Source: a virus
Taxonomy: Duplodnaviria; Caudoviricetes
Reading direction: 5' to 3' (one strand)
IMG/VR virus record: IMGVR_UViG_2974626280_000001
Location: 9,169 to 73,168 of that record
DNA: 64,000 bases
The notes below the pieces were generated by a model. It had not been told where the DNA came from. It was given only the letters and a program-made list of their open reading frames with translations, and did no database searches. This document shows positions 8,918-46,872 of the stretch, in pieces. Within the stretch, counting starts at the first letter, position 1; each line of letters begins with the position of its first letter. Both the position numbers and the translations under genes were made by a program.

Positions 8918-10321
8918 ATGCAGGGCACAAGCCGCGAAATCGACAAAAACGGTTTCATGACAATCAAGGGTTGTCCGCTCTCATCATTTGGGATTTTTGA
9001 ATATTCAGCAGGTCAGGTCGGATTACCCGGCGACCCACACCGCATCGTTAACGTTTACCGCCCAGAATCAGAAGTGAACAATGTTGATGCTATCAACTCG
9101 TTCCGCAACGTTCCTTTCATTGATGACCATGAGATGCTTTCCGGCTTCGAAGGTGATGAAGAGAACTCAGCGCCAGAAGATTACGGTGTCGATGGCGTAC
9201 TCACTTCTGAAGTCTATTACGCAAAACCGTGGATGCGCGGCGACCTGAAGGTATTTGCCCGCAAGCTGCGTCGCGCGATAGATTCTGGCAAGGTCGATTT
9301 GTCTCTGGGTTATGATTGCGAGTTTGTTGTTCAGTCAGGAACCTTCGACGGCAAGCCGTATGAGGTGATTCAACAGCGACTTCGCGGCAATCACATTGCA
9401 CTGGTTGACATAGGTCGTGTCCCCGGTGCACGTGTTCTGGATGGTCGGTGCTTTGACCATCTTAGTCTTTCTGTACTACCATCCAACGAGGATAACCCCA
9501 TGCCACAAAAAGGTATCACCAAGCCTATTCTGGGCAAAGGGATGGATAAAGCCGCTAAAGATAATGCGATTGAGCAGCTGAAGGCTCTGATTCCCGCATT
9601 AGAGCAGGCGCTTTCAGAAGAAGGTGGTGAACCTGCTTCTGAGCAACCGTCTGAGCAGCCATCCGTCTCAGTTGAGCAGACGCCAGAAGGTTCTGGCGAA
9701 GGCGAAACTAAGGTTGAAGTTGAGCCGGGTTCTGAAGTTTCAGAACATAACGACGAGCCGCCAACTAATGAAGGCGAACAGCCTTCAGGTGAAGGCGAAC
9801 TCTCAGGCCTGATCAGCCGTGTCAAAGCTGTCCTTGAGAAACTTGAATCAGGAGCCGCGACCGATGAATCAGAAGTTAAACCTGGTGAAGCTGAAGACCG
9901 CACTGAAGGTCTGGTGGACATCTCAGCACCAGCCGGTTCAGACCTCAAGGTTGACGACAAACCGACGGAAGTCGAAAAGGCGTCGCCAGGCCCATCAGCA
10001 GGAACTCACAAAATGGCAAACGATTCGGCGGTTCGCGCTATCCGCGCTGATATTGCTCGTGCGGATAACCTCTACAAGCGCGTGTCTAAAGTTACTGGTG
10101 CCTTTGATCATGCAGCTATGTCAGCATCTGATGTAGCCCGCTATGGTGTTCAGAAGCTGAAAATTAAGTGCCAAGATGGCGCTGAGTTTGATGCTTTGGA
10201 TGCATATCTGAACGGTCTGGATGCTGCTGCCCGTCAGCAGACCGTGACCACGTCTAAACGCGCAGCGGACTCAGCGGCAGAATCAGCTGAATTCGACGCA
10301 TGGTTGAAGGGTACTAAATAA
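8918..10321 (+). CDS. Prohead protease/scaffold (DUF2213-like)
   Basis: VYRPESEV, PFIDDH, LSLGYDC and GNHIALVDIGR motifs; acidic low-complexity linker; upstream of the capsid genes. Confidence 0.85.
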   Translation: MQGTSREIDKNGFMTIKGCPLSSFGIFEYSAGQVGLPGDPHRIVNVYRPESEVNNVDAINSFRNVPFIDDHEMLSGFEGDEENSAPEDYGVDGVLTSEVYYAKPWMRGDLKVFARKLRRAIDSGKVDLSLGYDCEFVVQSGTFDGKPYEVIQQRLRGNHIALVDIGRVPGARVLDGRCFDHLSLSVLPSNEDNPMPQKGITKPILGKGMDKAAKDNAIEQLKALIPALEQALSEEGGEPASEQPSEQPSVSVEQTPEGSGEGETKVEVEPGSEVSEHNDEPPTNEGEQPSGEGELSGLISRVKAVLEKLESGAATDESEVKPGEAEDRTEGLVDISAPAGSDLKVDDKPTEVEKASPGPSAGTHKMANDSAVRAIRADIARADNLYKRVSKVTGAFDHAAMSASDVARYGVQKLKIKCQDGAEFDALDAYLNGLDAAARQQTVTTSKRAADSAAESAEFDAWLKGTK

Positions 10322-33150: not shown

Positions 33151-34008
33151 TTAGAAGCCTTCAGCGTCCTGCGGCGTGTCTTCTACAGGTTGATCAGAAG
33201 CGGACCCGGCTTCTTTGCTGCGGTCGACGACTACAGTACCGCCAGCGACGGCGTCGTGCAGCTCTTTCGCAGCACTGTAGATGTCAGCGTTATCCACCAG
33301 ACCTTCCAGCTTGAACGACGGCACCGACCAGTTACCCTTGTCGTTTGACTGACCCTGAGTAGTCAGACGGACCATGTTCAGGAACGTTGGCGGAGTACGC
33401 AGGCCTTTGCTGGTTTGAACCTTTTTCTGCGACAGAGCTGTCATCAGAGCGCGTGACGCTTTGGTAGCGGTCGCGGCCAGAGAAAGCAGCGCCTGACCGA
33501 ATTCGCCCGTTTCAGGGTCAATGGCGATAACAAAGTGAGAACGGGTGTCGGCGTAGTAATCGGCTTTTTTCGGGTCAACTTTACCGTTTTCATCAACAGC
33601 GTAATGCTTGCCATCGATTTCGAGCACAGCGCCGGAATCAACCAGAGCTTTGAACTCTTCAACAGTAACTTCACCTTTGAAGCCGCCGTCAGCGTCGCGT
33701 GAACCCCAGCGAACGAAGCTGCGTTTGTACGCCGCAGGAACGATAACGATACCAGCTTTGCCGTCATACAGCTGCTGAGTAACGGTGTTGATCAGCATGC
33801 CTGACTTAGCGCCAGCAACGTATTTCGGGCTGTCTTCGTCAACCATCGGAGACATTTTCTGCAGCACAGCGATAAAGGGAAGGGCATATGATTCTTGATC
33901 AGCACCTTCAAAACCCTGACCAAAATCGTCCATATTGACGAATGAGCCCAGAGCGATTTCATTTTTTGCTACTTCTGCAACTTCGGTGTTTTCTTTCTTA
34001 GCGGTCAT
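33151..34008 (-). CDS. Putative single-stranded DNA-binding protein
   Basis: In the replication module; LPFIAVLQKMSP motif; acidic C-terminal tail ending in F. Confidence 0.55.
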   Translation of the reverse strand: MTAKKENTEVAEVAKNEIALGSFVNMDDFGQGFEGADQESYALPFIAVLQKMSPMVDEDSPKYVAGAKSGMLINTVTQQLYDGKAGIVIVPAAYKRSFVRWGSRDADGGFKGEVTVEEFKALVDSGAVLEIDGKHYAVDENGKVDPKKADYYADTRSHFVIAIDPETGEFGQALLSLAATATKASRALMTALSQKKVQTSKGLRTPPTFLNMVRLTTQGQSNDKGNWSVPSFKLEGLVDNADIYSAAKELHDAVAGGTVVVDRSKEAGSASDQPVEDTPQDAEGF

Positions 34009-34073
34009 GTTATAGTACCCTTTAACATAGGATTATAGGCCAATTCAACTTACTGTTGAGATTAGATAGTAAC

Positions 34074-34637
34074 TTACTTTTTGCGCTTAGGCAATACTAT
34101 TTTTGCTTCACGGAACTCAAAAACGGTCACTGAATCTGGCAGTGTTTCGCCTGCTTCAAGACGCTCTTTCACAAACGCCTTCAATGTTGCCGGATGAACA
34201 CCCTGTTTCAGCGCGGCGGTGATGTCTTCATTACGCAGCTGACCAACAACGGCATTCGCCTTGTCGATTTCGTCGCGCTCGAATTCAGCCGTCACTGTCG
34301 ACTTGATCAGGCCGCCGAAACTGTTGGCTTGGAGCCAATCGAAAAAGCGGTGCTCTTCAGACTTTTTGACACTTGCCTGAACAGCCTTGCCGATGGTGAT
34401 TTTGGTCTTGTCTTCCAGCTTAATTTCAGACAAGCCCATTTCGTCAAGAAGCTCAGGCAGCAGCATGCGGTTGATTGTAGTCAAACGCTCTTTTTTCAGC
34501 TCCAGCTCGTCTTCATGGGTTCTGATGGCTTCGTTGCACTCTTCAACTTCAGCCAGCAAAGCCAAAAGACGCTCTTTTGCTGTCCCAACGGGCTTGGCAT
34601 TATCCAAGTCGCTTTCCCAGTCAATCGTTTGACTCAT
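34074..34637 (-). CDS. Conserved replication-module protein
   Basis: Start moved to MSQTIDW (RBS AAGGAG); LPELLDEMG and VHPATLKAFVKE motifs. Confidence 0.7.
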   Translation of the reverse strand: MSQTIDWESDLDNAKPVGTAKERLLALLAEVEECNEAIRTHEDELELKKERLTTINRMLLPELLDEMGLSEIKLEDKTKITIGKAVQASVKKSEEHRFFDWLQANSFGGLIKSTVTAEFERDEIDKANAVVGQLRNEDITAALKQGVHPATLKAFVKERLEAGETLPDSVTVFEFREAKIVLPKRKK

Positions 34638-34773
34638 CACAGTCTCCTTCGCAGTAAACAGGGTTGGCGTCAGGCTCGTTACAATCCCAGCTTGACTCTT
34701 TAGCGTTAGGGCAATGGAGAGGGAATGAATATCCATCACCTTCCATCGTCTCACCACATTTCTTGCAGATCAT
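34621..34773 (-). CDS. Small Cys-rich protein (50 aa)
   Basis: Manual translation MICKKCGETMEGDGYSFPLHCPNAKESSWDCNEPDANPVYCEGDCDESND; RBS TAAGGAG; own promoter; missed by the ORF track. Confidence 0.75.
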   Translation of the reverse strand: MICKKCGETMEGDGYSFPLHCPNAKESSWDCNEPDANPVYCEGDCDESND

Positions 34774-36367: not shown

Positions 36368-36771
36368 AACTTCTCCAAATAGCTTACTATCGGCTCTTTG
36401 CCGATAATTAATGTGGCCATAGACAATAACTCGTCTTTGGTCATTGAGTCCAGAGGGTGCGACGGATTTAATAATATAAAGTCGTTTGCGACCCGAATCA
36501 ATACGAATGCGTGACCTTTCCAGTCGCGGCATTGTCTGGCGAATCCGAGTTGGCCGCGCTCGAATTTACCGCGCAAAGGAAGAGTAGAGGCCCGTTTGGG
36601 CCAATCCTCCAGGTACTTGTTTTCGAGCCAGAACATAGTGCCGTTGCGGTTTTGCCCGATGGTGTCGGGCATCGCTTCAGCTATGCTGTTCTCAATCCTC
36701 TTCAGGATCAGTTTCCGGCCCGCTGCTTTCTTCATCGGTTCGTACGTCTTCTTTTGTTCTGTCGTCGGCAT
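36364..36771 (-). CDS. PD-(D/E)xK nuclease (VRR-NUC/resolvase-like)
   Basis: IEN...MPD...FWLENK. Confidence 0.7.
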   Translation of the reverse strand: MPTTEQKKTYEPMKKAAGRKLILKRIENSIAEAMPDTIGQNRNGTMFWLENKYLEDWPKRASTLPLRGKFERGQLGFARQCRDWKGHAFVLIRVANDFILLNPSHPLDSMTKDELLSMATLIIGKEPIVSYLEKL

Positions 36772-39703
36772 GGCTTAGCACCCTTATGTTGTTGATAAAG
36801 AACATATCCAGACCGGAGAGTTTGAGCGCATTCATCATCACCCAAGAGCCTTTTGGCACGTTCTCTGCAATGTTACGACCCAGCCTTTCATAGTCCTGCT
36901 CTTTGATACGGAAGCGCATCGGCGAATCGCTCGAATCGTCAACGCACATAATATCGATGAACGCGGTTGGCCCTTCAATCCGTCCATCAGGTAAGTGATT
37001 CTTTTTAAGCACTTCTATGCCGCGCCTGTTATCCCAGCGGGTGATACCCTTTTCCAGACGCTTTTTGATGCGAATCGGTTCGTTTTGGTCTGCAACGATT
37101 TTCTTAGTTATCTTGCCGATTACCAAGCCAACTTCGCCGTCTTTAACGTCGCGCATATTCTCAGGCAGCACTTCTTTGGTACGCATCAGCGGCTTGCCAT
37201 AATCCCACATCGGCTTACCATTACTGTCTTTACGCTGCACCTTGATTAAAGTAGGCTTCTCATAGAGATGGCCGAACCGGGTGTGGGCCTCGTTAAGGTC
37301 GTTATACAGAACCTCTGCTTTCATCAGGCGGTCTTTATCGGCCTGAGTCAATACGCCGCGATTACGCTTATCGACGTACATGGCAGCCTTAGCAGGGCCA
37401 TAACCTTTGGCGTTCATGATACCGCCTACCAGACGACCGTCAGACGAAATGGTCCAGTTCATTTCGCTGTGATCAGGGTCAAGCGCGGTATAGTTAATTC
37501 CCTCTTTAGCCAGTTCACGAAGAATCGCAATGGTTTGCGTCTCATCTTTCGCTGCACGTAAACAGGCTGCGGCAAACTGTAGAGGGAAATAGCGCTTCAG
37601 GTAACAGGTCCAGTAGGTGATGATAGCGTATGATACGGAGTGAGACTTGTTAAAGCCCCATGAACCGAATGTAACCATCTCACGCCAAATCTTTTCAGCC
37701 TGGTCCTTTGGTACGCCAGACTCAACCGCGCCGCGCACGAAGTCTTCACCCTGTTGGTTGAAGTATTCCTCACCTTTACGACCAGACATCGCCTTACGAA
37801 CCGCAGAAGTCTTAACCCAGTCAAAGAGGCCAATCTCTTTAACCACGGCCATGATCTGTTCCTGGTACAGGAATACACCGAATGTTTCGTCAAGATACGC
37901 CTTCAGCTGCGGCACGTCATAGACAACCTCTTCATCGCCTTTAGAGCGTGCGATATACTTCTGAGCCATACCGGATGCGAGCGGGCCGGGCCGCGCAAGT
38001 GCTGTCAGGTTATCGATTTTACTGAAGCGGTCGATATTAACGAAGCGGGCAACAGAGCGGACGGCGTCGCCCTCAAACTGGAAAATCCCTGACATCTTGT
38101 CCTCGTTCAGGACATCTAAAACGCTTTGATCATCAAGGGTTAGCGAGTAGAGTTGTTCGATAGTTACCGCTCCAGTGTCGCCAATTATTCCAAGCGTACG
38201 CAGCCCAAGGGCATCGATTTTCAACAGGTCGAGATACTCGGAATCAGGCTTATCTATCTGAGCAATACCTTCCGCCGTAACGGTGCAATAATCTGATATC
38301 GGGTCATTACAGACGAGAATACCAGCAGCGTGAACGCCAGTGTGAGAAGGGTGAATCTCAAGGTCGCCCATGCAACGCGCGGCTTCAGGATATTGCTCAG
38401 AGAAGAGCTTGCCCGGTGTGGTCGTCGTCATTGTATCGTGCAGTCCTTTACCGTAACGCGCATCACCGGATGAATATTCAATCAGGGCGTTTTTGACGCT
38501 GTCTACAGCACCATAAGGAAGGCGAAAGCGCTTACTGACTACCGCCATCACGGAGTTAGCCTTGAGCGTGTTGATGTTACCCAGCTTTACGACGTTCTCT
38601 TTACCATACTTTTCTTGCAGGTAGTCGAACACCATATAGCGTTTGGTATCCTCAAAGTCAATATCGATATCGGGTAAATCGGCGCGGCTGATATCGATAA
38701 AGCGCTGGAAAAGCAGCTTATGGGGCAGCGGGTCTACTTCGGTAATCTCCATGCAGTAGCACACCAGAGAGCCAGCAGACGAGCCGCGAGCGGGTCCAAC
38801 GAGCATATGCTTTTTAGCGAACTTAACAAGGTCGGCAACCACCAGGAAGTAAGAATCAAATTTCTTGTTTTGAATCTGCTTGATTTCTTCCTGGAAACGG
38901 GCTTCATACTCCGGCGTCCACTCTTTGATGTGACCCGCCTTTAAGCGGTACTCCATCCCCTCACGCGCCAGCGCTACCATATCACCATCGAGGTGAATAA
39001 TTGGAGCCTTATTAAGAGCGCGGCCAGCAAGTGTTTCTGCCAGTCGAGTGGTTACGCCAATGGCGTCACAAAGCTCTTCATCGGTTGCAATACCTACCAA
39101 AGCAGATGTGTAGTCCTGCGCATCTTCAATAGTGCGCATACCTACAGATTCACGCGTTTCGAAAGCATAAGCAAAGTCTTTCTGCTCTTCTTTTGGAAGG
39201 TCGTTATATCCGGTGATGACCATTGGTTGCCCGGTTTCCCGGTGGGCCAATACGCCACGACGAGCGTGGAGCAACGACGACGGGTTGACGTCGATATAGT
39301 CGTACTGGTCAGGAGCCAGGAGAGCCAGCGCCCCGCCAGAGAATCGCACAACCCCTTCCAGCGCTCCGAACTCTTCAGGAGTCAGGCCGCCGTTCTGCAC
39401 CGCTTTGGTGGTCGCGTTATAGAACTTGCGCAGGTCGTCTGCGAGAATCCAGGCCTTTGGACGGAAGCCAAGTCCCTGTAGACGCTCGTCGTCTACCTTG
39501 ATTTGAATTTCCATCCCGAAGATGGGTTTTATATCGGCAGCCTTGCAGGCCTTTTCCCAGCGAACGTGACCCCAAGTATTGTTATCGACCATCGCGGCAA
39601 TGGGGCAATTCAACTCTTTCAGCCGCGCAATGATTTCGCCAGTACGGCCATAAACCTCTTTAAAGGTGTACGCGCTTCTTACGCGCAACTGAGGAAATGT
39701 CAT
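36692..39703 (-). CDS. dnaE: DNA polymerase III alpha-type (family C) replicative polymerase
   Basis: GPARGSSAGSL, FQRF, PDIDIDF, GVHAAG, KIDALGL, GIFQFE, YQEQIM, GFNKSH. Confidence 0.95.
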   Translation of the reverse strand: MTFPQLRVRSAYTFKEVYGRTGEIIARLKELNCPIAAMVDNNTWGHVRWEKACKAADIKPIFGMEIQIKVDDERLQGLGFRPKAWILADDLRKFYNATTKAVQNGGLTPEEFGALEGVVRFSGGALALLAPDQYDYIDVNPSSLLHARRGVLAHRETGQPMVITGYNDLPKEEQKDFAYAFETRESVGMRTIEDAQDYTSALVGIATDEELCDAIGVTTRLAETLAGRALNKAPIIHLDGDMVALAREGMEYRLKAGHIKEWTPEYEARFQEEIKQIQNKKFDSYFLVVADLVKFAKKHMLVGPARGSSAGSLVCYCMEITEVDPLPHKLLFQRFIDISRADLPDIDIDFEDTKRYMVFDYLQEKYGKENVVKLGNINTLKANSVMAVVSKRFRLPYGAVDSVKNALIEYSSGDARYGKGLHDTMTTTTPGKLFSEQYPEAARCMGDLEIHPSHTGVHAAGILVCNDPISDYCTVTAEGIAQIDKPDSEYLDLLKIDALGLRTLGIIGDTGAVTIEQLYSLTLDDQSVLDVLNEDKMSGIFQFEGDAVRSVARFVNIDRFSKIDNLTALARPGPLASGMAQKYIARSKGDEEVVYDVPQLKAYLDETFGVFLYQEQIMAVVKEIGLFDWVKTSAVRKAMSGRKGEEYFNQQGEDFVRGAVESGVPKDQAEKIWREMVTFGSWGFNKSHSVSYAIITYWTCYLKRYFPLQFAAACLRAAKDETQTIAILRELAKEGINYTALDPDHSEMNWTISSDGRLVGGIMNAKGYGPAKAAMYVDKRNRGVLTQADKDRLMKAEVLYNDLNEAHTRFGHLYEKPTLIKVQRKDSNGKPMWDYGKPLMRTKEVLPENMRDVKDGEVGLVIGKITKKIVADQNEPIRIKKRLEKGITRWDNRRGIEVLKKNHLPDGRIEGPTAFIDIMCVDDSSDSPMRFRIKEQDYERLGRNIAENVPKGSWVMMNALKLSGLDMFFINNIRVLSHADDRTKEDVRTDEESSGPETDPEED

Positions 39704-39704
39704 G

Positions 39705-40247
39705 TTAATCTCCGAATATGTCGTAAACGCCTTGTGTCTGGCAAATTTTATGAAGCATCATGATATCGTCCAATGCCCTGTGCTTCTGAGTATACTTGCC
39801 TATAAACAATTCGTAAAGCTCTTGCAGCTTCATCCTTCGACCGAATTGGGGATAGAATTGCTCAACGGTACATATTTGGATTTTAGGGAACTTCATGTCA
39901 TCCAGCGTCAGGCCGATTCGACGCGCGGCATAGTCGATAATGTTTTTATCGAACGACATGTTGTGAGCAATAATGGCTTGGCCGCGACTGATGAAATCGG
40001 CTATCTGCTCATGCTGCTCTGCAAAGGTCTTGTTGACCTCAAGGTCTTCATTCGTCAACCCGGTGAGCTTTGTGATGATTTCTTCGATGATGATTTCAGG
40101 GTTGATAATCAATTCGAGGGTGTCGATGATTTCCTTTCCATCGGTAATGATTCCCGCGAATTCAATAGGGCGCGGCTGCAGGCCAAGCGGTGCCTGATGG
40201 TGAACGGTCAGGCCAGTGGTTTCGGTATCGAATACGGTAAACAGCAT
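39705..40247 (-). CDS. DEDDh 3'-5' exonuclease (epsilon/DnaQ-like)
   Basis: FDTETTG, AHNMSFD, HRALDD; adjacent to dnaE. Confidence 0.9.
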   Translation of the reverse strand: MLFTVFDTETTGLTVHHQAPLGLQPRPIEFAGIITDGKEIIDTLELIINPEIIIEEIITKLTGLTNEDLEVNKTFAEQHEQIADFISRGQAIIAHNMSFDKNIIDYAARRIGLTLDDMKFPKIQICTVEQFYPQFGRRMKLQELYELFIGKYTQKHRALDDIMMLHKICQTQGVYDIFGD

Positions 40248-40302: not shown

Positions 40303-40848
40303 TCAACCCTTTGCTGCTGTCACGGTTGGCTCAACATACGGCGTGTAATTGGTATTCAGGCGGACGATGAACTTGAGGTCAACGCCAAGCAGGTCGTAAG
40401 TGTCAAAGATTACGTAGTTGTAACGGCGCTCGTCTTTGATGGCTTCGTTGGTGTGGGTCTGCGTCATAACTTCTTGCGCAATCGCCACGCCTTTAGACGC
40501 GAAGTAAGCCCGGTAAGACAGCAACTCGTCATTGGTGACGTGCATACCAAGGTGGCTTACACAATGCGGACGGTTCTCCAGCCAGTTGTTGCCTTTGGTG
40601 TAGTTAAGCACCTCCAGCTCCAGCGGCTTACCAGCTTCGACATCAGAGCCGCTGCCAGCCTGATAGTTGAAGTTCAGCTCTGCAATGTTAGTGCCGTTGG
40701 AGCCGTTAATCGCGCCAGTGGCGGTGACGACGTCCGTCACCCAACTGGTCAGGCCCAGGTCGCGTAGGATTTCAATGGCGACGTCGCTGTCAGGAGCGTT
40801 GAGAGCAATCTGCTGGATTTCGAATTTTTTCACTTTAATCTTTTCCAT
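40303..40848 (-). CDS. VOC/glyoxalase-superfamily protein (methylmalonyl-CoA epimerase-like)
   Basis: IQQIAL...LELEVL...SHLGMHV...YVIFDT...LGVDL pattern; start moved to MEKIKV. Confidence 0.75.
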   Translation of the reverse strand: MEKIKVKKFEIQQIALNAPDSDVAIEILRDLGLTSWVTDVVTATGAINGSNGTNIAELNFNYQAGSGSDVEAGKPLELEVLNYTKGNNWLENRPHCVSHLGMHVTNDELLSYRAYFASKGVAIAQEVMTQTHTNEAIKDERRYNYVIFDTYDLLGVDLKFIVRLNTNYTPYVEPTVTAAKG

Positions 40849-40858
40849 TTTATTCACC

Positions 40859-40984
40859 TTAAATCTTGCAAGCGTCGCCGCAATCGTTATCGTCAGCGGA
40901 CTCTTCAAATTCAACTTCTTTACGATTGTTGACGCGCTCTACAGCTTCGTCAACGCCAGGGATTTCAAAATCGTCTTCGCCCAT
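40859..40984 (-). CDS. Acidic 41-aa peptide ending DDNDCGDACKI
   Basis: Manual translation MGEDDFEIPGVDEAVERVNNRKEVEFEESADDNDCGDACKI; RBS TAAGG; exactly fills the gap between the SDR and VOC genes. Confidence 0.75.
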   Translation of the reverse strand: MGEDDFEIPGVDEAVERVNNRKEVEFEESADDNDCGDACKI

Positions 40985-40992
40985 AGTTTACC

Positions 40993-41670
40993 TTATTTAC
41001 CGAAGGGGATGTCAGTACCAGACATGTACTTATAGCTGCCTGATTCGATGAGGTGGCCGATGAATTCCGCGATGGACTCCGGCGGCGTTTCCAGACCGTG
41101 CATCAGAGCCTTGCGTTGGTACTCCGCAGCAAACTCTGGCGTCCAGCCGCGAACCTTGCAGACGTTCTCTTCAATCTGCTTGGACATGCCAGTACCAGCC
41201 AGCTTGTTAGGGCTGATAGAGAACACCGTGATGCCGTGCTTAGGCGTCAGTTCATGCGCCATCTGCTTAGTGATCATCAGACCCGCTGCTTTAGACGCGT
41301 TGTAAGCCAGGCTGGACGTCATAGGGATGTGCGCAGCGTTTGAAACGATGTTGATAACGAAGCCTTTCGACGCAATGAGTTGCGGCAGAACCGCCTGAGT
41401 CATAGCGACGAAAGAAAATGCGTTAACGTGCATCACATGGTCGAACTGCTCAACACTTACTTCTTCAAACCACTCGTTGCGGTTGATACCGGCACAGTTG
41501 ATCAGACCGTCGACTTTGTCGAGTTCACTTACCCACTTTGGCGGGTCTTGAACAGTCTGGTTAGGAGCAACGTTGCGGTCAAATTCGATAACCTGAATTC
41601 CGTTGAACTCCAGGACAGAAGCGATTTCACGACCTAAACCAGAAGAAGAGCCTGTTACGATAACTTTCAT
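40993..41670 (-). CDS. Short-chain dehydrogenase/reductase
   Basis: TGSSSGLG, INCAG, catalytic S and YNASK. Confidence 0.92.
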   Translation of the reverse strand: MKVIVTGSSSGLGREIASVLEFNGIQVIEFDRNVAPNQTVQDPPKWVSELDKVDGLINCAGINRNEWFEEVSVEQFDHVMHVNAFSFVAMTQAVLPQLIASKGFVINIVSNAAHIPMTSSLAYNASKAAGLMITKQMAHELTPKHGITVFSISPNKLAGTGMSKQIEENVCKVRGWTPEFAAEYQRKALMHGLETPPESIAEFIGHLIESGSYKYMSGTDIPFGK

Positions 41671-41700
41671 TATTATTTCCCGTTCGTTTAAGATGAGATA

Positions 41701-41728
41701 AGAATACGCCCCTTTGGAAGAGGCGTCA
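41701..41728 (-). promoter_or_regulatory. sigma70-like promoter for SDR/peptide/VOC, overlapping a hairpin
   Basis: TTGACG-16-TATTCT; ACGCC/GGCGT stem inside the spacer. Confidence 0.5.
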
Positions 41729-41732
41729 ACCT

Positions 41733-42833
41733 TTATTTGATTTTGATAGTGTGCGTATTAATCAGCGGCTCCAGCATCGCTGCATACACGGTTAAATCCA
41801 GAATCGAGTCCTGATGAGTCAGACCGCTGTTGGTGAAGCGCGTCAACTTAACAATAAGCAGCTCGAAGAGGTGCCACATGTTATAGTCTTCCTGCGTCTT
41901 CAACTCAACGCCATTCGGAAACAGCGCGGCCATCACCTTACCGACGACCAGCGCGTTGTCTTTATAGACGGCGTTACGCTCACGGAACGTTGCGGCGGCT
42001 TCTTCCAGCACGTCAGCCGCGATACGGCCTGACTTGTATTGGGCGCGAAGAGCATCGAGCGTGTCAACAGGTTGAGTTCGCTCCAGCTTCTCCGGGACTT
42101 CCACCGGGCGCACCGCCGCGCGGGTGTAGTAGTCGCCCAACTCGACGGCGCTGCAAGGGTATGCCAGAGTTGAGTCATCTGTTTCCTTCAACAGCGCCGC
42201 AATTAGAGGGTTAGTGGCGCAGCGCATTGTGGTGTGCGGCTTGAAGACGAAGTCGTGGCGTCCTTTGAATCTGACAGGGAACGCACTATCAACCTCTTGA
42301 GATTCGCCTTTGCGAATTTTCGCAATAATGTGCTCGTTGCCGCCAGCAATGACCATCTTTTTGGTCACCAGCCAAGGCTCAATAATAGCAGCATCAAATT
42401 CACGGTACATCTTAATAACGTCAGGGTGATCATCGAATGCGATGATGTGCTCATACTCATGGCCAGGCATCAAAAGGAACTTTTCCAGCATCTGGCGCTT
42501 CAGCGTCGCACTTGGCACGCCGTCTTCGTGATCAGCTCGCATAGCCAGAACTTTGTACTGGTCATCGGAAATACCGATAACATGATTCAACTGGTATTTG
42601 GTCACGCCAAAAATCCTCTGCGGCCTTGCGGTAAAAAAGGCGATATCCATGCCAGCCGCTAAGGCGTAGGCGACGAGGTGAGAGCCGATTGGCAGCGCCG
42701 TATCTTTAGCCATCTGCTCTTCAGAATGATACGCGTCAAAGTTCCGATTAGCCCAGTCGATGAGCGGTACACGGTGGGAATCGTCGATAGTGCAGCCGTC
42801 AAGGTCAAAGATAGCCAGTGTTCTGTTAGTCAT
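41733..42833 (-). CDS. HAD phosphatase (PNK-phosphatase-like) fused to an all-alpha nucleotide-modification-associated domain (DUF6378/DUF1599-like)
   Basis: FDLDG, FFTAR, LK, FDD HAD motifs; C-terminal RERNAVYKDN...KLTRF...HQDSILDLTVYAAML. Confidence 0.75.
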   Translation of the reverse strand: MTNRTLAIFDLDGCTIDDSHRVPLIDWANRNFDAYHSEEQMAKDTALPIGSHLVAYALAAGMDIAFFTARPQRIFGVTKYQLNHVIGISDDQYKVLAMRADHEDGVPSATLKRQMLEKFLLMPGHEYEHIIAFDDHPDVIKMYREFDAAIIEPWLVTKKMVIAGGNEHIIAKIRKGESQEVDSAFPVRFKGRHDFVFKPHTTMRCATNPLIAALLKETDDSTLAYPCSAVELGDYYTRAAVRPVEVPEKLERTQPVDTLDALRAQYKSGRIAADVLEEAAATFRERNAVYKDNALVVGKVMAALFPNGVELKTQEDYNMWHLFELLIVKLTRFTNSGLTHQDSILDLTVYAAMLEPLINTHTIKIK

Positions 42834-43120
42834 TCTACACGCCCTATTGATTTAGAATATTGATAGTAAAAGTCAATCTTATTTAACTTTGCCATAATCT
42901 TATCTTCATTAGGCTCAAAGTTAAAGCCGAATTTATCAGTCAGCAACGAAAGTACAGCAAACAAGTCTTGCACTTCATTTTGCAGACGTTCACGATTCGG
43001 CGGCGTGCTGTCGTTCATACGCTCATCAAGGCCGAAGCGGTCGCACTTGGAGCATTCCTGGGCTATCTCAGCACACTCTTCAGCAAGTAGCCCAAGAAGG
43101 AATTGATCACGTGTTTTCAT
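42830..43120 (-). CDS. MazG-like NTP pyrophosphatase
   Basis: LAEECAEIAQ...K...FGLD...LQNEVQDL pattern. Confidence 0.7.
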   Translation of the reverse strand: MKTRDQFLLGLLAEECAEIAQECSKCDRFGLDERMNDSTPPNRERLQNEVQDLFAVLSLLTDKFGFNFEPNEDKIMAKLNKIDFYYQYSKSIGRVE

Positions 43121-43953
43121 CAGCCGCTCGACTTGCCATTGTTGGCTACCGGGTTATTGGTCTGAACTTCAATATTCCAGAAGTCCTGTTTAAGTTTTGC
43201 TTTCTCCGCTTCCAGGTCCATCCACGGACGCCAGAAGGGGCAATGAGCCTTACCGTGGCGAGGGAAAGCGCACTGGCCAGTGGCTACGCAAGCGACTTGA
43301 AGCAGCGGCTCAGCCCACCAATGGACTTCGAGAATCAAGCGGCGCATCTCACGGAAAACCTCTTGGTACTCTCCTTGTGTACGCGTACAGAGGCGAGTCT
43401 TGGCGGTCTCAGAGAGCGTGCGCAGGTTGAACTTCGCCTGAATACGTGTCGACATGTTAGACGGCATGATACCACGAGCGTCTTGCAGTTCGGCCCCTGC
43501 CGCGATAAGCTCGGCATACAGCGCGTCAATGGTCGCCATGCCATCGTCCCATAGTTCGGCACGATTTTGCTTGGCGCGAAGATTGTTGATTCGCTCCTCA
43601 TCATTGGAGCTAAAAACATCCACTGTTTGATCAGGATTAAGGTGCTCAAACGCTTTCGGACGAACCGCATCAAACGCTGAAATTTCAAGTGCGCGGCTGG
43701 TTTCCTGCTGATAAGCTCCGGTGCGCGTTCTCACCAATTGGTGAGTAAAGTTCTTGCTCACTCCAGAGATATCAAAAACGTAATCGACGAATTCAAACGG
43801 CGACTTGATGGTGTCCAGCATATACTTAAAGTGGTCTGCCTTCTCCTGCTCAGTCATAGTCTTTGGGTCAGCGCCGCGCATACGTGCGGACTTAGTACCC
43901 AGCAAAAGCTCCAGCGCGTTAGGAGTAACGCTAATAAGTTCAACTTTCATCAT
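43120..43953 (-). CDS. thyX: Divergent flavin-dependent thymidylate synthase (ThyX-family)
   Basis: SPFE, GVSKNFTHQLVRTR...ETSR, ARGIMP, RL...Q-E; the signature RHRx7SxR reads RTRx7TSR. Confidence 0.85.
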   Translation of the reverse strand: MMKVELISVTPNALELLLGTKSARMRGADPKTMTEQEKADHFKYMLDTIKSPFEFVDYVFDISGVSKNFTHQLVRTRTGAYQQETSRALEISAFDAVRPKAFEHLNPDQTVDVFSSNDEERINNLRAKQNRAELWDDGMATIDALYAELIAAGAELQDARGIMPSNMSTRIQAKFNLRTLSETAKTRLCTRTQGEYQEVFREMRRLILEVHWWAEPLLQVACVATGQCAFPRHGKAHCPFWRPWMDLEAEKAKLKQDFWNIEVQTNNPVANNGKSSG

Positions 43954-44366
43954 TTGAAGTCCACAATGTCGTATTCAGAAGTCAGGCCGCAAGTATAGAT
44001 TTTCGACCCATATTTAGTCACTACCTGGGAACCGTCGCCAAGAACGATTACCAATAATTCTGCGCTCTTGCGCGTCTCAGGATGGAAGAAGGCATCACGA
44101 TTCCCTTCCAACTTAATTGGCGCGGCGTCTTCGATTACAATTTGCTGGCCGGACGGTAAGATGACCCGGAAATCAGCGCCACCGTAGCCAGCAGGCGTGG
44201 CCGCAAGCGTCATCTGGTGGTTAAGGTCGGCACTGGCACAGGCGTAGTCCCAGCTCTTGTTTACGGCGCGTACCTGGGCGTCAGCGCCCGGTGCGAAGAA
44301 GCCGAAGAGGAAAGCGGCCAGAAGCAGCAGTCCATACCAACGTTCGCCTTTAAGTAAGTTTTTCAT
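43950..44366 (-). CDS. Secreted hypothetical protein
   Basis: Signal peptide ending GADA; two Cys; own promoter. Confidence 0.7.
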   Translation of the reverse strand: MKNLLKGERWYGLLLLAAFLFGFFAPGADAQVRAVNKSWDYACASADLNHQMTLAATPAGYGGADFRVILPSGQQIVIEDAAPIKLEGNRDAFFHPETRKSAELLVIVLGDGSQVVTKYGSKIYTCGLTSEYDIVDFK

Positions 44367-44394
44367 CTTACACCTCCGATTAGTTGTTAAAGTG

Positions 44395-44423
44395 ATTATC
44401 GCTCATCCTTGAGCAGAAAGCAA
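44395..44423 (-). promoter_or_regulatory. sigma70-like promoter (GAGCGATAATCA class)
   Basis: TTGCTT-17-GATAAT; 22 bp identical to 44843-44864. Confidence 0.8.
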
Positions 44424-44430
44424 GTTTATT

Positions 44431-44808
44431 TTACCACTCTTCACGACCGGTGACGATGCACGGAATAAGCTTGCTACCATCGACGACGATAGACGCAGTA
44501 TTGTTGCGCATATCCTTCTTGGTGATTCCGATGCTTACTACATGGTTGCCGTTGAAAGCGCTCTGCATGACGTAAACTTCACCGTCAGCATTAATGCCAC
44601 GGCGCGTTCCGCCATTGGTTGGGTAGTTAACGCCGTTGTAATCGATAGCGTTTAAGATACCCTGCGGAGTGCGCGATTGCGAGTACAGGAGAGGTTTGCC
44701 GCCGCAAATCATACGGAAGTAAACAGCGCTTGACTCAGCATGAACGGCTACGGGGCAAAGGGTTGAGGCGGCGACGATAGCGGCTGCTGCAATAATAAAA
44801 CGTTTCAT
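44431..44808 (-). CDS. Secreted hypothetical protein
   Basis: Signal peptide MKRFIIAAAAIVAASTLCPVAVHA; Cys near both ends of the mature part. Confidence 0.7.
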   Translation of the reverse strand: MKRFIIAAAAIVAASTLCPVAVHAESSAVYFRMICGGKPLLYSQSRTPQGILNAIDYNGVNYPTNGGTRRGINADGEVYVMQSAFNGNHVVSIGITKKDMRNNTASIVVDGSKLIPCIVTGREEW

Positions 44809-44844
44809 TTTTAATTCCTTCAATTGTTTTGTTTCGATAGAATG

Positions 44845-44873
44845 ATTATCGCTCATCCTTGAGCGTACGTCAA
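44845..44873 (-). promoter_or_regulatory. sigma70-like promoter (GAGCGATAATCA class)
   Basis: TTGACG-17-GATAAT. Confidence 0.8.
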
Positions 44874-44879
44874 GCACTT

Positions 44880-45842
44880 TTATTTAAAATTTTTGAGACG
44901 TTGATAATTAGTCGCGTGGATAAGGTTATCGACCTTTAAAACGTCGTCGGCTACGTCGTCCAGTAACAGGTTTCGCCATGTAGCGAAGCGACCGATAGAG
45001 AAGACGCGGAATTGAGACGTCAACTCATAGAGTACCGCCTGTCGCAAGTCCTGCGGCATGTCGACAATCTTACCATAGCGCTGATCAACGACTTCGGCAG
45101 ACGCGATGTCGACCTGAGTTGGGTGCAGACCGAACTTGCCAGCTATGTACGCCAGCTCGATATCCGTATCCATATAACTGCCGCCGTTCTCTATCATTTC
45201 GACAATCATAGTGTCGCCAGTGATAGAGGCGCGATAGGTCTTAAGGTCTTCGGCAGGGAAATAGATTGTTTGGTAAATGTCGCATGGAACATTCACCTTG
45301 AAGCGGTGAACGCTGATGCTCTGACGGGCGAACGCGAAAGGGATTTGCTCATCGTGTTCGAGGTTGGTAATCTTCATCATCACCTGCATAGGGATAGTGC
45401 TGATGATTGAAGGGCGGTTATCGAGGTTGAAATTGAAAGCCTCATCAATCGGAGTCTCAAATAAGATTCGGTCCTCACCAACCTCTTCAATGAGTCGGTC
45501 ATAGAAGTCGTCAGGCGCAATGTAGCGCGTCGCCGTCTCCAGCTTCATGATGCTGCGGCCAGAGAGCTGCCCTGTTACCTTCAGCGAGTACATGTTGGCA
45601 AGGTTGAGCGGGCAAGTGCCCTGATGCATCTGGTTGCCGTAAACAACGGCCTTATCCACGCGTACGGCGCGGAAAGGAATTCCGGTCAGCTTTGATACCT
45701 CTTCGCCGCGAAAACGCAGGAGAGCGCGGTGCTGTGGCATTCTTGGGCCTGCTTCATACACGGGCGCTTTCTTGAAGTGGCAAGCGGTGATAAGGCCAGC
45801 AAGTCCTGCCCCGGCGATTACGATTGATTTGGTCAGGTTCAT
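44880..45842 (-). CDS. FAD-dependent protein, UDP-galactopyranose mutase/amine-oxidase-like fold
   Basis: N-terminal IAGAGLAG...VYEA Rossmann motif; C-terminal IGRFATWRNLLLDDV resembles the GRLAxYxYxxMxxV flavin motif of UGM. Confidence 0.75.
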   Translation of the reverse strand: MNLTKSIVIAGAGLAGLITACHFKKAPVYEAGPRMPQHRALLRFRGEEVSKLTGIPFRAVRVDKAVVYGNQMHQGTCPLNLANMYSLKVTGQLSGRSIMKLETATRYIAPDDFYDRLIEEVGEDRILFETPIDEAFNFNLDNRPSIISTIPMQVMMKITNLEHDEQIPFAFARQSISVHRFKVNVPCDIYQTIYFPAEDLKTYRASITGDTMIVEMIENGGSYMDTDIELAYIAGKFGLHPTQVDIASAEVVDQRYGKIVDMPQDLRQAVLYELTSQFRVFSIGRFATWRNLLLDDVADDVLKVDNLIHATNYQRLKNFK

Positions 45843-45984: not shown

Positions 45985-46872
45985 TCAGTCGTTATCGAAG
46001 CGCTGAACGGATTCGTCATCTTCAAAAGTGTCGGCGTCACCGTCTTCAACTTCTGGCTGCCCGGTCTGATCAACGGTGTGGAACACCAGGTGACCCATCT
46101 CTTCCAGCTTGCTCAGGTAAGAGCGGACGCTTGCGCCGTACAGCAGGCCTTTCACTTCTTCGCCGAACTCGTCGATGTTGATCAGTGTGCCATCGCTGTA
46201 TTTTTCACGAATCACCGCCAGCACTTTGCCGCGCGTTGAGTGCTCCTGCGGGTTCGACAGACCTTCGCCGGTATACTGGAAGTGGGTCGATTTGGTACGG
46301 CGGCCACCTTCAGCTTTCTTAGCAGCTTTACGCTCTTCCAGGATGGCACGGCGCTCTTCGGCTTCCTGCTTACGCGCAGCCTTATCGGCTTCGGCCTGCT
46401 GACGTTTCGCTTCACGCTCAGCATCACGCTCAGCTTTGCGGTCCGCTTTAGCCTGATCACGTTCAGCCTTTTTAGCAGCTTTCGCTTCTTCACGCGCCTT
46501 AGCACGCTCTTCAGCCTGCTCAGCTTTAGCAGCTTCGCGCTCAGCTTTCTTGGCTTCTTTCTCTTCTTCACGCTGCTTAGCGCGTTCAGCTTTAGCGGCT
46601 TCACGCTCTTCAGCTTTAGCAGCTGCTTTAGCTTCGCGCTCTTTGGCTTTCTCTTCAGCCTGAGCTGCGCGCTTCTCTTCCTTCTCCTGCGCCTTAGCAG
46701 CGCGGGCATCGGCCTGTTCCTGACGCTTGGCTTCGCGCTTGGCTTCAGCTTCTTTACGCGCTGCTTCACGCGCTTCAGCCTTTTCCTGGCGCTCTGCTTC
46801 ACGCTTAGCGCGGCGCTCCGCTGCTTCAGCGGCTTTCTGTTCTTTCGATTTAACCTGGATTGGTTCGCTCAT
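45985..46872 (-). CDS. E/K/A/R-rich charged helical protein with C-terminal helix-turn-helix-like domain
   Basis: About 190 aa of EAK/ERA repeats, then STRGKVLAVIRE...VRSYLSKLEEMGHL. Confidence 0.8.
   Translation of the reverse strand: MSEPIQVKSKEQKAAEAAERRAKREAERQEKAEAREAARKEAEAKREAKRQEQADARAAKAQEKEEKRAAQAEEKAKEREAKAAAKAEEREAAKAERAKQREEEKEAKKAEREAAKAEQAEERAKAREEAKAAKKAERDQAKADRKAERDAEREAKRQQAEADKAARKQEAEERRAILEERKAAKKAEGGRRTKSTHFQYTGEGLSNPQEHSTRGKVLAVIREKYSDGTLINIDEFGEEVKGLLYGASVRSYLSKLEEMGHLVFHTVDQTGQPEVEDGDADTFEDDESVQRFDND

Follow-up and report, generated by a model that had tools for sequence, protein, structure and literature searches.

The 64,000-nucleotide stretch of viral DNA analysed here (the window) covers positions 9,169 to 73,168 of the IMG/VR record IMGVR_UViG_2974626280_000001. 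At positions 40303-45842 of the window, a block of co-oriented genes encodes an altered homologue of the flavin-dependent thymidylate synthase ThyX (the variant ThyX) and a flavoprotein whose fold resembles that of UDP-galactopyranose mutase (UGM). We propose, with a probability of roughly 45%, that this block supplies the core, together with lineage-specific tailoring genes, of a flavin-dependent route to sugar-derived thymidine hypermodification in PB1-like phages. To date, it is the strongest candidate for making the modified thymidine of the related therapeutic Pseudomonas phages. The source genome, 73,168 bp with direct terminal repeats of 3,603 bp by count, belongs to a 73-kb PB1-like myovirus. 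Among cultured phages, this virus is closest to Pantoea phage PA1, Serratia phage MTx (Myosmarvirus) and the E. coli Wifcevirus phages, and it shares a supergroup with the more distantly related Pseudomonas Pbunaviruses PB1, F8 and 14-1. A pathway of this kind had been suggested by an earlier sequence-only reading, and all of the open reading frames (ORFs) on which it relied are present, encoded on the minus strand just upstream of DnaQ (39705-40247, minus strand) and DnaE (36692-39703, minus strand). In the order of transcription, the block consists of the flavoprotein, two small ORFs, the variant ThyX, a MazG-like protein, a HAD phosphatase fused to a second domain, a short-chain dehydrogenase/reductase (SDR), a 41-amino-acid (aa) ORF and a VOC protein.

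Pbunaviruses F8 and 14-1 contain a sugar-type hypermodified thymidine, as found by restriction digests and liquid chromatography-mass spectrometry (Yee et al., bioRxiv 10.1101/2025.03.31.646159). The modified nucleosides have masses of 362 and 390 Da, about one quarter of the T is replaced, the replacement occurs in the TG context, and the remaining T of F8 is canonical T, not 5-hydroxymethyldeoxyuridine (5-hmdU). In the same study, Pbunavirus DNA was cut by EcoRI, HindIII, XbaI, DraI and BsaI; an older paper described incomplete digestion of a PB1-like phage by EcoRI and HindIII. The study named no biosynthetic genes and cited Pbunavirus as an example of what screens for known modification genes would overlook. 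In the literature searched, we found no later gene assignment for the Pbunavirus base and no link of ThyX to phage hypermodification. The hypermodification itself is already published; what is new, as far as this literature shows, is the assignment of genes to it and the chemistry that we propose. Because the base was reported without genes, the idea of the sequence-only reading fits a real chemistry that lacks assigned genes. The mass of 362.3 Da corresponds to deoxyuridine (dU) plus C5H10O4, namely 5-(tetrahydroxypentyl)-dU, and equally to 5-hmdU plus a tetritol minus H2O. Likewise, 390.3 Da corresponds to dU plus C6H10O5 (a C-hexosyl-dU), and equally to 5-hmdU plus a pentose minus H2O. The C-linked readings would be those expected if a pentose or hexose alkylated C5 in a reductive or cyclising reaction, and the nucleoside of the type found in Bacillus phage SP-15 is 330 Da.

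The variant ThyX (43120-43953, minus strand) was assigned to the Thy1 family by Pfam at 4.7e-27 and has a C-terminal extension. Its AlphaFold2 (AF2) model matched the ThyX of T. maritima (1o26) with a Z score of 15.2 over residues 1-222. The residues were mapped by alignment to the ThyX structures in the PDB, with the T. maritima enzyme (Tm) as the reference. The arginines used for binding and activating dUMP, namely Tm Arg78, Arg80, Arg90, Arg147 and Arg174, are retained as R75, R77, R87, R160 and R187. The folate-stacking Tm His53 is replaced by Ile49, and the other substitutions are Tm Arg74 to His71, His79 to Thr76 (RHR to RTR), Ser83 to Ala80, Ser88 to Thr85 and Tyr91 to Ala88. The ThyX motif RHRxxSxxxxSxR is not matched, and the protein has RTRTGAYQQETSR at this place. 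The alignment bears out the assignments made earlier by eye, in which the dUMP arginines were kept, His53 was lost, RHR had become RTR and Ser88 had become Thr.

To see how far these changes extend, 77 homologues adjoining the flavoprotein gene were surveyed. Position 49 was Ile in 76 of the 77 and Leu in the other one, position 76 was Thr, Ser or Asn in all 77 and never His, and position 88 was Val, Ala or Thr and never Tyr. The first Ser of the motif (Tm Ser83) was Ala or Ser, and the second (Tm Ser88) was Thr, Ser or Ala. Seven arginines were invariant in these sequences, including the five that bind or activate dUMP. Since the substitutions are fixed across the homologues, the protein is, as judged from this conservation, a stable and selected variant and not a product of decay. 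Four cysteines, C189, C222, C228 and C238, were all present in 36 of the 77 homologues and all absent in the rest, a pattern suggestive of either a metal site or a disulphide module in this subclade. No ThyA and no second ThyX were found in this genome, PB1, the Wifcevirus WFC, Xylella phage MATE2 or Rhizobium phage RHph_Y65, and PF00303, the family of ThyA and dUMP hydroxymethylase, was absent from the same five genomes and from Microbacterium phage Sparcetus. Fused (Rosetta-stone) forms of the variant ThyX were sought among longer proteins and none was found, which is weak evidence.

The first gene of the unit (44880-45842, minus strand) encodes the flavoprotein, a 320-aa protein of FAD type with the amine-oxidase/protoporphyrinogen oxidase (PPO)/UGM fold. 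It has a GxGxxG Rossmann motif and matched phrog_4828 in PHROGs at 2.5e-107, and the Pfam scan assigned no family. The AF2 model has a pLDDT of 87. In an exhaustive VIA search, the best structural match was the UGM of T. cruzi, 4dsg (Z 21.3, rmsd 3.9, 306 of the 320 residues aligned, 18% identity), followed by protoporphyrinogen oxidases at Z 18-19 and then bacterial UGM at Z 16.6; with Foldseek, UGMs were at the top among the matches listed. From these Z scores, the margin of UGM over PPO is small. At the sequence level, the GLF signature PF03275 had no match at E <= 10 anywhere in the genome, hhalign against E. coli Glf aligned just 18 residues of the Rossmann motif with a probability of 2.7%, and a sequence search against the PDB gave nothing meaningful. 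The assignment as a UGM by sequence was therefore dropped and the term UGM-like fold was kept, so that of the FAD protein with UGM-like termini described earlier, the fold stood and the membership in the UGM family at the sequence level did not. On the strength of the model and these searches, the protein is best described as a short and new representative of the amine-oxidase/PPO/UGM fold that resembles UGM but cannot be shown to be one. It has 2784 homologues and, among those listed, most lie on phage-sized contigs or short fragments.

Among the genes forming the core of the entire PB1-like group are those for the flavoprotein, the variant ThyX and the HAD phosphatase that carries a DUF6378-like domain. 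PB1 has the flavoprotein (ORF65), the variant ThyX (ORF59) and the HAD protein (ORF57) and lacks the SDR and VOC genes, and both F8 (by tblastn) and 14-1 carry the same core. WFC, MTx and MATE2 have the flavoprotein, variant ThyX, HAD, SDR and VOC genes all together. F8 and 14-1 share the supergroup and the core genes with the phage studied here, whereas the Pbunaviruses lack SDR, VOC and the 96-aa MazG-like protein, and therefore the base of the studied phage, if any, may differ from theirs. Eighty related loci were fetched from IMG/VR, and the 48 that extend 6 kb or more beyond the flavoprotein gene on its downstream side were used for counting. The variant ThyX was found in all 48, the DUF6378-like domain in 47 and DnaQ with DnaE in 47, with a constant gene order. 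SDR and VOC, which are gained or lost as a pair, occurred jointly in 31 loci and were jointly missing from 16, and in a single locus they were split. The co-occurrence across phages that had been named as a check on the pathway was thus observed, with flavoprotein, variant ThyX and DUF6378-like domain together in 47-48 of the 48 loci.

Phages outside the PB1-like group, namely RHph_Y65, Sparcetus and SP-15, carry more weight than the synteny within it. In RHph_Y65 (207 kb), the flavoprotein, the variant ThyX and the HAD-DUF6378-like fusion are encoded within 6 kb, and this ThyX has Ile at the position of His53 and RNR instead of RHR. In the actinophage Sparcetus (region of genes 54-59 and 65), a Rossmann flavoprotein, a HAD protein, an SDR, a VOC protein and a protein with the DUF6378-like motif are encoded in a row beside DnaE, the HAD and DUF6378-like parts being split into two genes. 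Its flavoprotein is related to the present family (hhalign, E 1.5e-4), its VOC protein is 33% identical to that of the studied phage, and its ThyX, a 466-aa protein with RQR instead of RHR, is encoded a few kb from the module. A GT2 glycosyltransferase gene and a weakly matching pyrimidine-dimer-glycosylase-like gene also lie beside the Sparcetus module.

The base of SP-15 is 5-(4',5'-dihydroxypentyl)uracil, with a five-carbon polyol chain on C5, and to our knowledge no other phage has a C5 polyol chain on uracil. Within 6 kb of the SP-15 record (115025-121105), we found an SDR (SP15_129), a very divergent Thy1-family protein (SP15_130) and a HAD phosphatase (SP15_135). SP15_130 (413 aa) is the second Thy1-family gene of this phage, located directly downstream of the SDR and 3.6 kb from the HAD gene. 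A search of SP-15 for the flavoprotein gave no homologue, and BLASTP between the SP-15 SDR and the SDR studied here was not significant. From its gene content, the neighbourhood of SP15_130 is a candidate locus for the dihydroxypentyluracil pathway. The analogy with SP-15 drawn by the sequence-only reading holds for the clustering of SDR, Thy1-family and HAD genes; the relation is at the family level only and does not extend to the flavoprotein. A gene for a nucleoside 2-deoxyribosyltransferase was also seen near SP15_130.

The common sites GAATTC, AAGCTT and GATC, whose presence the sequence-only reading had noted, occur 29, 21 and 77 times in the window. The depletion of palindromic hexamers was evaluated using Markov-corrected expectations. 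In this genome, none of the 16 TG-containing hexamers was strongly depleted, as compared with 12 of the 40 others (p = 0.01), the depleted ones comprising 5 of 32 that contain T without TG and 7 of 8 made of G and C only. The same pattern was obtained for F8 (0 of 14 versus 9 of 36), WFC and MTx, whereas T7 did not show it (5 of 15 versus 9 of 28). Over the whole genome, CCGCGG was observed 0 times against 23 expected, TCCGGA 0 against 17, GGCGCC 1 against 23 and GATC 83 against 286. Strong avoidance was seen also for CCCGGG, GGTACC and CGGCCG, for example, and the TG-containing palindromes were near expectation. T followed by G accounts for 25.7% of the T in this genome, which matches the reported quarter. 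These counts fit a protection in the TG context in the studied phage, too.

For the chemistry, we tentatively propose that the variant ThyX, together with the UGM-fold flavoprotein, joins C5 of a deoxyuridine nucleotide to C1 of an aldose by a C-C bond, with a flavin-N5 iminium as the intermediate. Such a glycityl transfer in place of a methylene transfer, which would make the variant ThyX a flavoenzyme of a new kind, is in our view possible but doubtful in this exact form. In UGM, the N5 of the reduced flavin is the nucleophile that attacks C1 of the sugar, giving a flavin-N5-sugar iminium. According to their titles, PDB entries 7ndw and 7ndz hold ThyX-FADH2 after a soak in formaldehyde and a ThyX that was reconstituted using an N5-carbinolamine flavin. 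We know of no ThyX-family enzyme that installs a sugar-derived substituent. In the proposed scheme, the reduced flavin of the variant ThyX, of the flavoprotein or of both would form an N5-iminium with C1 of an aldose or an activated sugar, replacing the methylene of methylenetetrahydrofolate (CH2-THF), which would fit the loss of the folate-stacking His. The iminium would be attacked by C5 of a deoxyuridine nucleotide, the same step that an ordinary ThyX performs, and the arginines holding this nucleotide are kept. A subsequent elimination and hydride transfer would yield a 5-(polyhydroxyalkyl)uracil, and an intramolecular ring closure would give a cyclic form instead. If this is true, the transfer produces the 362 and 390 Da bases and, through a deoxygenation of the SDR type, the dihydroxypentyluracil of SP-15. 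The HAD phosphatase may remove a phosphate from the sugar or the nucleotide, and the DUF6378-like and MazG-like pyrophosphatases may trim the nucleotide pools. Clearing of dTTP by these enzymes, as suggested by the sequence-only reading, is unlikely as stated because about three quarters of the T in F8 stays canonical. Where present, as in the studied phage, the SDR/VOC pair could oxidise, epimerise or dehydrate the side chain, and its deoxygenation or epimerisation would shift the chain towards the SP-15-type base. The TG context would arise either by context-dependent incorporation and proofreading by the phage DnaE/DnaQ, or would need an enzyme acting at the DNA level.

Several observations weigh against the proposed pathway. 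The modification of about a quarter of the T of F8 in the TG context points to recognition of DNA, which a pathway acting on the nucleotide pool does not supply. The sequence-only reading had seen neither a deoxynucleoside monophosphate (dNMP) kinase nor a DNA-acting transferase, and our scans agree with it: Pfam scans of 30 further ORFs of the genome, 10 of which were compared with PHROGs, detected no dNMP kinase, glycosylase, transglycosylase, glycosyltransferase, TET/JBP protein or DNA transferase, and thus no DNA-acting enzyme for the TG specificity. The masses fit O-linked ethers or glycosides of 5-hmdU equally as well as C-linked chains. The bases of F8 and 14-1 differ, yet their flavoproteins are 97% and their ThyX variants 94% identical. 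Synteny inside the PB1-like group is not independent evidence because it is largely inherited. The evidence for TG protection from hexamer counts is modest, and a similar, though weaker, trend was seen in one control phage, phiKMV (3 of 13 versus 17 of 31). Wifcevirus phages were reported to be resistant to EcoRI and EcoRV in vivo and sensitive to EcoP1_I, and a modification in TG only does not explain this resistance, because the EcoRI and EcoRV sites have no TG and yet are present in WFC (18 EcoRI and 6 EcoRV sites in 61 kb). The pathway idea as first put forward is partly supported: the sugar-type base in relatives, the UGM-like fold, the invariant changes in ThyX and the recurrence of the module speak for it, and the link from these genes to the base is one that we infer.

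The variant ThyX may also simply make dTMP, because it is the only gene of the thymidylate-synthase type in these genomes. The block would then be an ordinary module of nucleotide supply, with a divergent but normal dTMP synthase that serves a phage of fast replication, HAD, MazG and DUF6378-like proteins for house-cleaning or salvage, and SDR, VOC and flavoprotein as unrelated auxiliaries, while the base is made by other, anonymous genes. The retained ThyX fold with all of the substrate arginines and the location in the replication module agree with this explanation, as does the need of a TG-specific modification for a DNA-level enzyme that the block does not contain, and the many ORFs without a family could hide the real modification genes. 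However, the folate-stacking His, the His of RHR and Tyr91 are lost throughout the clade, the variant ThyX is strictly linked with the UGM-fold flavoprotein and the HAD-pyrophosphatase in three unrelated phage lineages, and the base is sugar-derived while no other sugar-handling gene was found in the scanned ORFs. We consider this explanation unlikely, although it is the one to be taken most seriously beside the flavin-dependent pathway. Slightly less probable is a route that passes through 5-hmdU or is post-replicative, in which the variant ThyX is a flavin-dependent dUMP hydroxymethylase or acts on DNA, the flavoprotein, SDR and VOC proteins prepare an unusual sugar or alditol donor, and a putative DNA transferase links the donor through oxygen to 5-hydroxymethyluracil (5-hmU) in TG, as in base J. 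This route agrees with the alternative mass assignments given above, with the TG specificity and with the normal function of UGM-type enzymes in making sugar donors. The GT2 glycosyltransferase and glycosylase-like genes of Sparcetus can be counted for it, and the four-Cys extension of the ThyX subclade that includes the studied phage could serve to bind either a metal or DNA. On the other hand, no glycosyltransferase, 5-hmU DNA kinase, aGPT-Pplase or TET/JBP protein was found among the ORFs scanned (5-hmdU DNA kinase and aGPT-Pplase had neither Pfam nor PHROG matches, with some ORFs left without any family), the leftover T of F8 is canonical and not 5-hmdU, and a folate-dependent hydroxymethylase would need the folate site that is altered here. 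It is very improbable that the flavoprotein, SDR and VOC proteins act on host sugars, such as precursors of lipopolysaccharide (LPS) or O-antigen receptors, with ThyX and the phosphatases as mere neighbours. The UGM-like fold, the use of LPS or O-antigen as a receptor by PB1-like and Wifcevirus phages, and two operon ORFs with apparent signal peptides can be cited in its favour. The fixed placement between replication genes, the linkage with the variant ThyX and nucleotide phosphatases in unrelated phages of very different hosts, and the lack of the GLF sequence signature in the flavoprotein argue against it.

The other genes of the block are also encoded on the minus strand. The HAD protein (42833 to 41733 in the direction of transcription, 366 aa), a core gene, is of the PNKP type, although its match to HAD_PNKP (9e-6, 26.3 bits) is just under the cut-off of 27.6. 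It matched phrog_4889 at 2.3e-56 and has the DxD nucleophile motif FDLDGC near the N-terminus. The C-terminal domain is all-alpha and resembles NTP pyrophosphatases, and a sequence search of the fusion protein against the PDB gave nothing meaningful. Of the earlier description, a HAD phosphatase fused to a nucleotide-modification-associated domain, the former part was supported and the label of the latter was not established, because the domain has only a weak match to DUF6378 (0.036). The MazG-like NTP pyrophosphohydrolase (42830-43120, 96 aa, EExxE motif), which had been recognised as such before, is weak in Pfam (0.0045) and clear in PHROGs (phrog_4856, 1.3e-22), and was found only in the lineage of this phage. 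Overlaps of 1-4 nucleotides occur at three junctions (138-aa ORF/ThyX, ThyX/MazG and MazG/HAD), and the overlap of the MazG-like gene with both neighbours suggests that it is translationally coupled to them. The SDR (40993-41670) is of the classical type, as previously read, with TGxxxGxG and YxxxK motifs (adh_short, 2.9e-37), and its PDB neighbours are FabG-type enzymes and polyol or sugar dehydrogenases. The VOC protein (40303-40851), of the glyoxalase/epimerase type, probably starts at the ATG at 40851 and not at the TTG at 40914. Its Pfam match is weak (Glyoxalase_4, 0.018), and the earlier assignment was supported by the ESM Atlas, in which its neighbours in feature (scores 0.91-0.96) and structure (TM 0.68-0.80 to VOC clusters) were VOC families.

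The small ORFs appear to be peripheral. The 41-aa ORF (40859-40984) is very acidic and ends with DDNDCGDACKI, presumably comparable to the redox-active C-terminus of E. coli NrdA. The ORF exists, but it is not conserved, as MTx has a different 64-aa ORF at this place and WFC has none, and the dithiol peptide of the sequence-only reading was therefore rejected as a member of the pathway. The 148-aa ORF (44431-44877) and the 138-aa ORF (43950-44366, with a 4-nucleotide overlap with the start of ThyX) each have an N-terminal hydrophobic stretch read by eye as a signal peptide, and both are embedded in the operon without detectable relatives. Their slots hold other small variable ORFs in related phages. 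The 148-aa ORF had no family match, none of the 80 related loci contained a match to it, and it is probably outside the pathway.

Just upstream of the flavoprotein gene are, on the minus strand, a terminator-like hairpin with 7 G-C pairs and a T-run (45955-45937) and then a promoter-like site with 10 of 12 matches (45905-45877). In MTx and WFC, terminators are annotated at both ends of the equivalent unit, before the flavoprotein and after the VOC gene. Further upstream, a 295-aa protein (45985-46872, minus strand) has a long, TolA-like N-terminal part rich in Lys, Glu and Ala, followed by a C-terminal domain that is conserved, and is kept in the closer PB1-like relatives only. Two conserved genes of the replication module (33151-34757, minus strand) have Pfam "Pam3 gp34-like" and "Pam3 gp33-like" (DUF7307) as their sole matches, and could be looked at as candidates for a DNA-level factor. 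In the scan of further ORFs, an uncharacterised 611-aa protein proved to be a tail depolymerase. The gene comparison between F8 and 14-1 for a determinant of the base difference gave no enzyme-like candidate. The strongest divergence was seen in ORF70, whose proteins are 57% identical, and in the HAD proteins, with 79%. ORF70 has a weak match to a DnaJ-type zinc finger, and its neighbouring genes are 91-99% identical between the two phages. This hot spot might be linked to the differing bases or to anti-defence.

Pbunaviruses are among the most-used phages against Pseudomonas aeruginosa, and the hypermodification of their DNA was recognised only in 2025 and without a gene assignment. The candidate gene set makes the pathway directly testable. 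If the proposed pathway is true, it predicts uncultured phages with such DNA, in view of more than 2,700 flavoprotein homologues, could account for the restriction resistance of Wifcevirus phages, adds a new type of reaction to the flavin chemistry of ThyX and UGM, and provides a lead on the pathway for dihydroxypentyluracil in SP-15.

Compared with the ThyX of T. maritima (TM0449) and M. tuberculosis, the variant ThyX has the same fold, Thy1 profile and substrate arginines, but it is altered at His53, RHR and Tyr91, has the four-Cys C-terminal segment in one subclade, and is always encoded beside the UGM-fold flavoprotein. Precedents for a role other than the supply of cellular dTMP exist within this fold, namely PolB, the ThyX-family UMP/dUMP C5-methylase of polyoxin biosynthesis (4p5a/4p5b), and the atypical ThyX of C. 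glutamicum (3fnn/3ge9); unlike the role proposed here, both still transfer a one-carbon unit. The flavoprotein shares the overall fold of UGM/Glf, with 4dsg as its best structural match, but it is shorter (320 aa versus 365-510 aa) and has no GLF signal in Pfam. SP-15 resembles the block in the clustered SDR, Thy1-family and HAD genes, and differs from it in sequence relation and in the flavoprotein, as described above. Finally, the known systems of thymidine hypermodification (M6, ViI, PaMx11, SP10 and PhiW-14) have in common with the PB1-like case a partial replacement of T and a bulky C5 group that blocks nucleases, and their genes lie near replication genes, as in the studied block. These pathways use a dUMP hydroxymethylase, a 5-hmdU DNA kinase and an aGPT-Pplase amino-acid:DNA transferase, families of which none was detected in the scans made here, and their substituents are derived from amino acids, whereas that of the Pbunavirus relatives is sugar-like.

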